From: a virus
Taxonomy: Duplodnaviria > Heunggongvirae > Uroviricota > Caudoviricetes
IMG/VR virus record: IMGVR_UViG_2740892230_000025
Reading direction: 5' to 3' (one strand)
Length of the DNA: 4,368 nucleotides
Below the pieces are notes generated by a model that did no database searches, had not been told where the DNA came from, and worked only from the letters and a program-made list of their open reading frames with translations. Shown one piece after another: positions 3,382 to 4,206 of this stretch; the first letter of the stretch is position 1, and every line of letters starts with the position of its first letter. Position numbers and translations under genes: made by a program.

Positions 3382-3391
3382 NNNNNNNNNN
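3382..3391. other. Assembly or stitching gap (N x10)
   Basis: Run of 10 N. Confidence 0.95.
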
Positions 3392-3623
3392 TGGTGTGGC
3401 ACAGATGCTGGCCCCGAAGCCAAAAACACCGGAATACAGGGCAACGGATAACGGTAAACAGAACACGTACTTTTCGTCGCTGGATAACATGATTGCCCAG
3501 GGGAACCCGATGCCGGTGCCTTACGGTGAAATGCTGGTTGGTTCACGGCGAATCTCCCAGGACATCAGTACCCGTGATGAAGGCGGTGGCGGAAAGGTCG
3601 TGGTTATCGGGCGGCAGGGGTAA
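3392..3623 (+). CDS. I: Tail assembly protein I, C-terminal fragment (re-covers ~3297-3381); stop TAA 3621-3623
   Basis: GVAQMLAPKPKTPEYRATDNGKQNTYFSSLDNMIAQGNPMPVPYGEMLVGSRRISQDISTRDEGGGGKVVVIGRQG*; matches the lambda gpI C-terminus (..QNTYFSSLDNMVAQGN..YGEM.VGSR..SQEIST.DEG.GG.VVVIGR) from memory. Confidence 0.9.
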
Positions 3624-3630
3624 AAAGAAT

Positions 3631-3654
3631 AAAAAAATCCCGCAGAGTTGCGGG
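3631..3654 (-). terminator. Putative intrinsic terminator oriented for the minus strand (GC stem 3639-3644/3649-3654 followed on minus RNA by U7 = plus-strand A-run 3631-3637)
   Basis: Plus strand reads aaaaaaa-t-cccgca-gagt-tgcggg; the reverse complement is hairpin + TTTTTTT. Stem conserved in the second copy at 3971-4002. Confidence 0.4.
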
Positions 3655-3758
3655 GACAGACAAAGATTAACGTTAAGGAGTTATTTTTGTTTCTGGTGCT
3701 CGGGCAAAAAAAACATTAACGCAGAGAAATTATTAGCACCACAGTCAGTTTGTGAAAA

Positions 3759-3774
3759 TGTGAAGATATTCAGA
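3759..3774. promoter_or_regulatory. Imperfect dyad TGTGA-N6-TCAGA (CRP-half-site-like), conserved in both spacer copies
   Basis: TGTGAagatatTCAGA at 3759-3774; TGTGAagaaatTCAGA at 4102-4117. Resembles the CRP consensus TGTGA-N6-TCACA with one mismatch; weak. Confidence 0.2.
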
Positions 3775-3793: not shown

Positions 3794-3826
3794 ACAGGCA
3801 TCCTCCGGGATGCCTGTTGTTTTTGT
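3794..3826 (+). terminator. Putative intrinsic terminator or attenuator upstream of J (10-bp stem 3794-3803/3808-3817, loop TCCG, then TGTTTTTGT)
   Basis: ACAGGCATCC-TCCG-GGATGCCTGT followed by a T-rich run; same element at 4137-4167 with a compensatory T:A to C:G change. Confidence 0.5.
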
Positions 3827-3928: not shown

Positions 3929-3938
3929 NNNNNNNNNN
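3929..3938. other. Assembly or stitching gap (N x10)
   Basis: Run of 10 N. Confidence 0.95.
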
Positions 3939-3965
3939 GTGGTGGTTATCGGGCGGCAGGGGTAA
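3939..3965 (+). CDS. I: Tail assembly protein I, last 8 codons + stop (VVVIGRQG*), second copy
   Basis: Duplicates 3597-3623 with one synonymous change (gtc to gtg). Confidence 0.7.
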   Translation: MVVIGRQG

Positions 3966-3970
3966 AGCAT

Positions 3971-4002
3971 AAAAAAATCCCGCAGTGTATGGAGGCTGCG
4001 GG
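3971..4002 (-). terminator. Putative minus-oriented intrinsic terminator, copy 2 (7-bp stem 3979-3985/3996-4002, 10-nt loop, adjoining A7 on plus = U7 on minus)
   Basis: aaaaaaa-t-cccgcag-tgtatggagg-ctgcggg; stem retained relative to copy 1 while the loop differs by an indel. Confidence 0.4.
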
Positions 4003-4136
4003 AACAGAAAATGAAGATTAACCACAGGGAGTTTTGTTTTTATTGGCCCGAAAAAACTGTAACGCCCGGGAATGATATCTGCCACGGGGGCGTACAGAAA
4101 ATGTGAAGAAATTCAGAAATTTTATTCCGTCATGAC

Positions 4137-4167
4137 ACAGGCACCCTCCGGGGTGCCTGTCGTTTTT
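4137..4167 (+). terminator. Putative intrinsic terminator or attenuator upstream of J, copy 2 (stem 4137-4146/4151-4160, loop TCCG, then CGTTTTT)
   Basis: ACAGGCACCC-TCCG-GGGTGCCTGT + T5; paired positions 4144/4153 are C:G where copy 1 has T:A. Confidence 0.5.
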
Positions 4168-4195
4168 GGGGCATAAACAGATTCAGACATCAGAC

Positions 4196-4206
4196 AGGAG
4201 AGGGGG
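4196..4206 (+). promoter_or_regulatory. Shine-Dalgarno (AGGAGAGGGGG) for J copy 2
   Basis: Purine-rich AGGAGA ending about 10 nt upstream of GTG 4212. Confidence 0.5.

Follow-up and report, generated by a model that had tools for sequence, protein, structure and literature searches.

The small RNA (sRNA) gene dealt with here is already known from two sources, as EcOnc22-24 (2014) and as PasB (2021). PasB is encoded by prophage PP6 of the EPEC strain E2348/69, on the minus strand of NC_011601.1 (1466343->1466261; 83 nt) and flanked by the genes E2348C_1436 and E2348C_1437 (Pearl Mizrahi et al., 2021, Table S6, PMC8550237). In the RefSeq annotation, the gene for the tail assembly protein I ends at position 1466255 and that for gpJ starts at 1466496, both on the plus strand. 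The RNA was verified by northern analysis with the probe AATCCCGCAGTGATCGCGGAGCT, its level changed in a delta-hfq strain by log2 values of -6.8 and -2.4, and RIL-seq yielded Hfq-dependent chimeras with about 37 partners, in which PasB was almost always the second RNA, as expected of an sRNA (Pearl Mizrahi et al., 2021, PMC8550237). Since its baseMean values (482-1082) lie far above those of the flanking I (5) and J (15) mRNAs, PasB is independently transcribed (Pearl Mizrahi et al., 2021, PMC8550237).

EcOnc22, EcOnc23, and EcOnc24 were found on the plus strand of the O157:H7 Sakai prophages Sp15, Sp14, and Sp11, respectively, as Hfq-CRAC peaks present in at least three data sets; they run at about 85 nt on northern blots and are destabilized in a delta-hfq mutant (Tree et al., 2014, Table S2, PMC4104026). 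No predicted Rho-independent terminator is ticked in the table of that study for EcOnc22-24, nor for AgvB (Tree et al., 2014, PMC4104026), and a later review still gives their targets as unknown (Sy and Tree, 2021, PMC7873438). The coordinates of Table S2 refer to an old Sakai assembly and are shifted by about +139 nt against NC_002695.2, at least between 1.94 and 2.93 Mb. This offset was calibrated with AgvB1 (listed at 1941783-1941835, in Rfam at 1941920-1941981; +137 to +146) and with StxS/EcOnc15 (listed at 2925956-2926022, with a 3' fragment ending at tR' at about 2926080-2926163; +124 to +141). A reading of the Sakai coordinates at face value, which places EcOnc22-24 over a sense-strand terminator near J, was rejected after this calibration. 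All three genes are located in I-J spacers of NC_002695.2, where the tail genes are on the minus strand, so that the RNAs are antisense to them; the I-J spacers of Sp11, Sp14, and Sp15 are identical.

In the literature examined, PasB and EcOnc22-24 are nowhere equated, and the term 'EcOnc' is absent from a recent preprint on the Pas sRNAs (Zhu, Shabalina and Storz, 2026). EHEC homologues are given for PasA and PasD, not for PasB, in the original description (Pearl Mizrahi et al., 2021, Table S6, PMC8550237). The 2026 survey used blastn with a word size of 28 and a query coverage above 75 (Zhu, Shabalina and Storz, 2026), and because of these stringent settings it has probably missed alleles as divergent as those described below. 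The two names appear to denote one family. We report here on a hairpin followed by U7 that is found twice in a stretch of viral DNA, and conclude, with a probability of roughly 0.9, that it represents the Rho-independent terminator and the Hfq-binding 3' module of a reverse-inserted PasB/EcOnc22-24 sRNA gene, most likely that of a trans base-pairing regulator.

The I-J Spacers of the Analyzed Window

The window, by which we mean the entire stretch of 4368 nt that was analyzed, is a chain of fragments split by runs of 10 N (241-250, 400-409, 633-642, 903-912, 1391-1400, 1756-1765, 2409-2418, 2962-2971, 3382-3391, and 3930-3939), in which two related lambdoid tail regions alternate. The fragments carry tail genes in the order end of H, M, L, K, I, and start of J. 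Because the window is stitched together and is not contiguous genomic DNA, open reading frames running across the N runs are artifacts. The I-J spacers are on the last two fragments. That of copy 1 lies between the TAA stop codon of I (3621-3623) and the ATG start codon of J (3859), that of copy 2 between the I stop codon (3963-3965) and the GTG with which J starts (4212). Aligned with each other, they agree in 84% of the columns.

On the sense strand of copy 1, the sequence AAGGAG (3675-3680), the complement of CUCCUU in the predicted sRNA, constitutes a strong Shine-Dalgarno sequence, and a TTG codon 6 nt behind it opens a 10-codon reading frame, MFLVLGQKKH (3675-3719, plus strand). Comparable mini-ORFs of variable frame and length are present in copy 2 and in the EPEC spacer. 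The reading frame behind AAGGAG is probably incidental, and the idea of a conserved small ORF behind the plus-strand TAAGGAG was dropped since frames and lengths vary among the alleles. Spacers of the copy 2 type also possess a 7-nt repeat, CAGACAT/CAGACAG, directly upstream of the J ribosome-binding site (4181-4198), of which one further locus (L025) has two extra units.

A Hairpin and a U7 Tail Next to the I Stop Codon

The first-pass annotation of the window had drawn attention to an A7 run followed by a GC-rich stem-loop in both spacers, placed it 8 nt behind the I stop codon, and read it as an intrinsic terminator of the minus strand that has no U-run on the plus strand. Both elements are present at the coordinates it gave. 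The close spacing holds as well, although the figure of 8 nt becomes 7 for copy 1 and 5 for copy 2. On the plus strand, copy 1 is composed of A7 (3631-3637), a single t (3638), cccgca (3639-3644), gagt (3645-3648), and tgcggg (3649-3654), and copy 2 of A7 (3971-3977), cccgcag (3979-3985), a 10-nt loop, and ctgcggg (3996-4002). The corresponding minus-strand sequences are 5'-CCCGCA-ACUC-UGCGGG-A-UUUUUUU and 5'-UCCCGCAG-CCUCCAUACA-CUGCGGGA-UUUUUUU.

The hairpin of copy 1 (3639-3654, minus strand) consists of 6 bp and the loop ACUC and folds with -10.9 kcal/mol (z -3.7), while that of copy 2 (3978-4003, minus strand), in which a flanking U-A pair lengthens the stem to 8 bp, has a 10-nt loop and folds with -13.9 kcal/mol (z -4.9); none of 200 shuffled sequences was as stable as either of them. 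With stems of 6-8 bp containing five to six GC pairs, followed by A and the U7 tail (3631-3637 in copy 1, 3971-3977 in copy 2; both minus strand), the two elements have the properties of canonical intrinsic terminators, and U7 is at the same time the expected proximal-face site for Hfq. A terminator scan listed the copy 1 site on the minus strand only (CCCGCAACTCTGCGGG ATTTTTTTAT), as one of three terminator-like sites in 809 nt (0.6 +/- 0.8 in shuffles). The hairpin of copy 2 is absent from this list because its 10-nt loop exceeds the limit of 8 set by the scanner. The probe used for the PasB northern (AATCCCGCAGTGATCGCGGAGCT) reproduces the hairpin under study in its sense-strand form, and PasB as annotated ends with the final U of U7, which is 6 nt away from the I stop codon.

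We gathered 53 distinct alleles of this module from IMG/VR. CCCGCAG...CTGCGGG-A-U7 was present in all of them, in a collection for which the search pattern fixed the 3' half of the hairpin and in part U7; the 5' half, which was left free, is intact in 52 of the 53. The stem is invariant among the collected alleles and displays no covariation, and since it never varies, covariation argues neither for nor against the hairpin. Its upper part and the loop vary by indels from allele to allele, as had been noted for the two copies of the window, namely a retained stem and a loop altered by an indel. Copy 1 has lost 11-13 nt of the loop relative to EPEC PasB and represents the 6-bp stem version left after this deletion.

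A Predicted Minus-Strand Promoter and the Internal Parts of the RNA

A search of the spacer for minus-strand promoters, as suggested in the first-pass annotation, revealed a sigma-70 promoter in copy 1, TTCACA-16-AATAAT (3729-3756, minus strand; -35 at 3756->3751, -10 at 3734->3729). Its counterpart in copy 2, TTCTGT-16-TATCAT (4072-4099, minus strand; -35 at 4099->4094, -10 at 4077->4072), aligns with the promoters of copy 1 and of EPEC PasB (TTCACA-16-TATAAT). When the start is placed about 7 nt below the -10 hexamer, the predicted PasB-family sRNA of copy 1 extends from 3722 to the last U of U7 at 3631 (minus strand; about 92 nt) and that of copy 2 from 4065 to 3971 (minus strand; about 95 nt), both supported by a covariance model (CM R1; see below) and by their folds. 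Each copy thus has a predicted promoter of its own from which, with the predicted starts, an RNA of about 80-100 nt would arise. Since promoter and terminator are both on the minus strand, each spacer contains a transcription unit that is complete and reverse-oriented. Judged from the RNA-seq-derived 5' end of its homolog PasB, the copy 1 RNA may alternatively begin near 3706; the annotated 5' end of PasB lies about 15 nt downstream of the start inferred from TATAAT, a mismatch that points to processing or to imprecise mapping.

The -10 hexamer reads TATAAT in 26, AATAAT in 15, and TATCAT in 7 of the alleles (48/53), and the promoter spacer of the module is 16 bp. The -35 hexamer is variable; it is TTCACA in 33 alleles and weak in copy 2 and in Sakai-type alleles (TCCGGC in Sakai). 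The RNA starts with GCGUUA, a U-run, and a variable segment. An (A-R-N)x5 repeat, AGAAACAAAAAUAAC, follows in copy 1 (3681-3695, minus strand), a likely Hfq distal-face site and candidate seed; copy 2 has four such triplets, and at least three consecutive ARN triplets occupy this position in 42 of 43 unique alleles (mean in shuffles about 1.45). Behind the repeat is a CUCC stretch, (A)CUCC(U/A)U(A), complementary to a Shine-Dalgarno sequence; in copy 1 it takes the form UCCUUA (3675-3680) within the anti-Shine-Dalgarno-like ACUCCUUA (3674-3681). Next comes a conserved U-rich stretch (GUUAAUCUUC across the alleles), which in copy 1 reads GUUAAUCUU (3663-3671, minus strand), lies directly 5' of the terminator, and contains the nearly invariant UUAAUCUUC. 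A variable linker separates this stretch from the terminator and U7.

A U7 tail is the motif recognized by the proximal face of Hfq and an ARN tract that recognized by its distal face. The window alleles possess both sequence correlates of Hfq binding, U7 and (ARN)4-5, in agreement with the Hfq dependence seen for the homologous alleles. ARN motifs as elements of Hfq-sRNA recognition were described in the study that reported EcOnc22-24 (Tree et al., 2014, PMC4104026). For the Sakai allele, an RNA of 91 nt is predicted. With the shift of about +139 nt, the Hfq peak of EcOnc22 corresponds to nt 18-78 of this RNA and takes in the 5' half of the terminator as well as the ARN tract and the U-rich stretch.

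Relatives of the Window Alleles in Other Prophages

Both window copies are found where the described genes are found, in the I-J spacer of a lambdoid prophage and on the strand opposite to the tail operon, and in both the 3' end CCCGCAG...CTGCGGG-A-U7 is no more than about 8 nt away from the I stop codon. For a comparison over the full length we used the covariance model CM R1, whose 20 alleles include EPEC PasB and Sakai EcOnc22-24 but none that resembles copy 1 or copy 2. It matched copy 2 with 81.4 bits (E 1.4e-13; 3971-4065, minus strand) and copy 1 with 59.6 bits (E 1.1e-9; 3631-3722, minus strand), in each case over the full length; these were the only two strong matches in the window, the next one scoring 9.7 bits. 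An alignment of the window copies with the spacers of Sakai Sp15 and of EPEC extends over the entire spacer length. Relative to the EPEC PasB transcript, the window alleles are 74-77% identical and the Sakai allele is 74% identical. Against a background of varying flanking DNA, the 53 alleles conserve the -10 hexamer, the ARN tract, the U-rich stretch, and the terminator with U7.

Copy 1 is present at 100% identity in many O157:H7, O121, O145, and O55 genomes, and so is copy 2. Related spacers belong for the most part to Stx1- and Stx2-converting phages. An STEC genome contains a median of 4 related places and as many as 11, and the family is found in about 15-20% of the complete E. coli genomes, often in many copies. 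RefSeq annotates no RNA feature at the matching genome places. A search of the window with all Rfam families at E<=1 gave nothing near a gathering score, and Rfam has no model for the PasB/EcOnc22-24 family; the best overlap, Hrs1 on the plus strand, reached 22 bits against a gathering score of 56 and was treated as a chance match. A scan for the dyad pattern of the module (see below) in one genome per species returned 42 matches, almost all of them chance occurrences in unrelated phyla, and the real ones were confined to E. albertii and two tiny, contamination-like contigs. The family therefore appears to be restricted to Escherichia, in agreement with the 2026 survey (Zhu, Shabalina and Storz, 2026).

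The Dyad and the Boundary of the Conserved Module

Upstream of the -35 hexamer of copy 1 is an imperfect dyad, TGTGA-N6-TCAGA (3759-3774), that resembles a CRP site in 9 of 10 core bases, and a pattern match, TGTGAAGAAATTCAGA (4102-4117), is present in copy 2; the CRP-like pattern thus occurs twice in the window, with 0.16 occurrences expected. In the sense of the RNA it reads TCTGA-N6-TCACA and is invariant in all alleles collected, an invariance that was in part imposed by our module filter, which required the half-sites. The flanks AAAA.TTCTGAA and TCTTCACATTT are conserved beyond the bases that the filter required. Because, relative to the start that the -10 hexamer predicts, the dyad has its center near -44.5 and not at the class II position of -41.5, we take CRP control as a lead only, and the dyad as a putative cAMP-CRP activation site in that sense.

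With the dyad, the conserved module comes to its promoter-distal edge. Many prophages have wholly different DNA on the J side of the dyad, yet the segment from the I stop codon to the dyad is kept; the most frequent allele type of IMG/VR, for example, has a 343-nt spacer with an unrelated J-proximal segment. Since the dyad is retained where the J-proximal DNA switches, it belongs to the sRNA unit and presumably has a regulatory role. The I-J spacer as such is a hotspot of recombination and insertion, in which unrelated segments are found beyond the dyad and the sRNA module is kept (L027 at 7758-8100; L022, L030, L017, L031, L007, and L020). A few places hold broken copies or foreign DNA. The promoter of L082 is replaced right at the -10 hexamer (around position 6073 of the reverse complement), L092 carries at 1650 a truncated sRNA fused to a fragment of the L gene beside a second, intact tail module, and L130, a 546-bp 'Asaia' contig resembling E. 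coli contamination, has unrelated IS-like DNA before the dyad at 449.

These allele data could be extended to a broader reading, in which the PasB family is larger and more modular than published and comprises at least five allele types, with variable segments set into a constant scaffold of promoter, dyad, ARN tract, terminator, and U7 that occupies most lambdoid I-J spacers of STEC. The family might then be under the control of cAMP-CRP or of another dyad-binding regulator, and might gate J in cis together with a sense-strand terminator. We consider this reading as a whole doubtful.

Relation of the sRNA Unit to the Late Operon

Both spacers contain, in addition, an intrinsic terminator of the sense strand. 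That of copy 1, a 10-bp stem followed by UGUUUUUG, is located at 3794-3825 (plus strand), outside the sRNA module and 34 nt upstream of the J start; that of copy 2, with the tail CGUUUUUG, is located at 4137-4168 (plus strand), upstream of the J GTG. The sense-strand terminators thus lie inside the late operon, 34-45 nt before J, and presumably stop transcription that is not antiterminated ahead of this gene. One pair of their stem has changed in a compensatory manner: it is U-A in copy 1 and C-G in copy 2 and in the Sakai and EPEC spacers, and further alleles show wobble or mismatched intermediates. In L027, whose spacer is of a non-homologous type, the matching place before J is taken by another terminator that looks bidirectional. 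The terminator at 3794-3825 was also considered as the end of a second sRNA, for which neither inspection by eye nor the scan disclosed a convincing plus-strand promoter.

One may ask in this context if the unit acts chiefly in cis, with the RNA or convergent transcription directed at the I-J mRNA and modulating synthesis of the host-specificity protein J, its trans targets being secondary. In favor of this, 80-95 nt of the I-J intercistronic transcript are perfectly matched by the complementary RNA, many otherwise mosaic prophages keep the unit at one position, and two spacer types that are not homologous both have a sense-strand terminator between the unit and J. However, neither I nor J mRNA is among the PasB RIL-seq partners listed, the RNA is expressed while the late operon is silent, and it overlaps neither the I coding sequence nor, at a distance of about 135 nt, the J ribosome-binding site. 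A predominantly cis-antisense function is therefore rather improbable.

The same palindrome also folds in the sense mRNA, and directly behind a stop codon, where it is found, is a common place for mRNA stabilizers. The hairpin could consequently be seen as an element of the plus-strand late mRNA that stabilizes the 3' end of I, serves as an RNase processing site, or terminates in both directions, its minus-strand appearance being incidental. However, the stem is followed on the plus strand by GACAGAC in copy 1 and by AACAGAA in copy 2. Neither is a U tract, and the scan reported the element on the minus strand and not on the plus strand; hence the hairpin is neither a sense-strand nor a bidirectional terminator. 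Moreover, promoter, ARN tract, and U7 are conserved together with it on the minus strand, the EPEC RNA was detected with an exactly matching 3' end, and a separate, proper terminator of the sense strand is present farther downstream. A plus-strand role is thus very unlikely. That the element is a decaying remnant of a reverse-oriented insertion without present function, as the first-pass annotation had offered for one of its explanations, is hardly tenable, the insertion hotspot and the visibly broken loci L082, L092, and L130 notwithstanding: the unit is complete, an sRNA 'moron', whose -10 hexamer, ARN tract, terminator, and U7 are kept in 53 alleles that diverge elsewhere by about 25%, which reaches a median of 4 and a maximum of 11 copies in an STEC genome, and whose homologs are expressed and bound by Hfq.

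Proposed Mode of Action

We return to the interpretation as a PasB/EcOnc22-24 sRNA gene. The sigma-70 promoter, about 90 nt from the hairpin, would fire toward I in lysogens, in which the late operon is silent. RNA polymerase would halt at the hairpin and U7, 5-7 nt short of the I stop codon, and an RNA of about 80-95 nt would be released. Hfq would then bind to the U tail and the ARN tract, and thereby stabilize and protect the sRNA, and the single-stranded ARN/CUCC region, the candidate seed, could pair with target mRNAs of the host and of accessory elements. Firing, termination, and protection by Hfq have been demonstrated for the EPEC and Sakai alleles, and we infer the same steps for the window alleles, which on the strength of their sequence would be expressed like PasB. 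In view of the (ARN)n tract, the CUCC stretch, the U-rich stretch, and the approximately 37 chimera partners in EPEC, a trans base-pairing regulator is most likely, the RIL-seq chimeras being the evidence for trans action. The exact start site, the seed, and the targets of the window sRNAs are predictions.

The first-pass annotation had suggested that transcription from inside the spacer toward I yields an antisense or small RNA, and this is what experiments have established for PasB and EcOnc22-24 at the homologous locus. The same annotation regarded a minus-strand terminator at this place as unexpected; it is not, since it belongs to a described sRNA gene. That such a gene can be recognized from sequence alone is a useful validation. 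To join PasB with EcOnc22-24 and to show the diversity of their alleles is a small addition, not a discovery, and the conserved dyad, the ARN tract, and the CUCC stretch provide concrete handles for experiments. As the family is carried by Shiga-toxin and other virulence-associated prophages, a regulatory role in EHEC and EPEC physiology is plausible.

Comparison with Known Phage-Encoded RNAs

Lambda OOP RNA is, like the RNA considered here, a short transcript with its own promoter and intrinsic terminator that runs against the surrounding phage operon. It differs in that it overlaps the 3' end of cII, acts in cis through RNase III, is encoded in the early region, and is unrelated in sequence; it is not known as an Hfq-dependent trans regulator.

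AgvB, AsxR, and HnrS (EcOnc01, 02, and 10-12), encoded by prophages of EHEC, are likewise short, Hfq-dependent, multicopy 'morons' with their own promoter and intrinsic terminator in the late regions of lambdoid prophages, and AgvB shares ARN-type distal-face motifs with the PasB family. However, these genes are located downstream of PR' near the lysis genes and not in the tail operon, and their sequences are unrelated. AgvB and AsxR (RF02702 and RF02703) were ruled out for the window by location and because neither model gave a match in it at E<=1; the AgvB model scored 96.5 bits at the Sakai control locus. HnrS, considered as a multicopy prophage sRNA, was ruled out since it corresponds to EcOnc10-12 and is found elsewhere in the prophage, and so was EvrS, which is unrelated and located in CP-933N.

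EcOnc22-24 and the window RNAs are both encoded in the I-J spacer and antisense to the tail genes, and the Sakai allele, with its poor -35 hexamer TCCGGC, aligns with the window copies and is a different allele. PasB and the window alleles have in common the I-J locus, the antisense orientation, the terminator core, the promoter layout, the upstream dyad, and a similar length, whereas they differ in the 5' third of the RNA, the linker, and the terminator loop.
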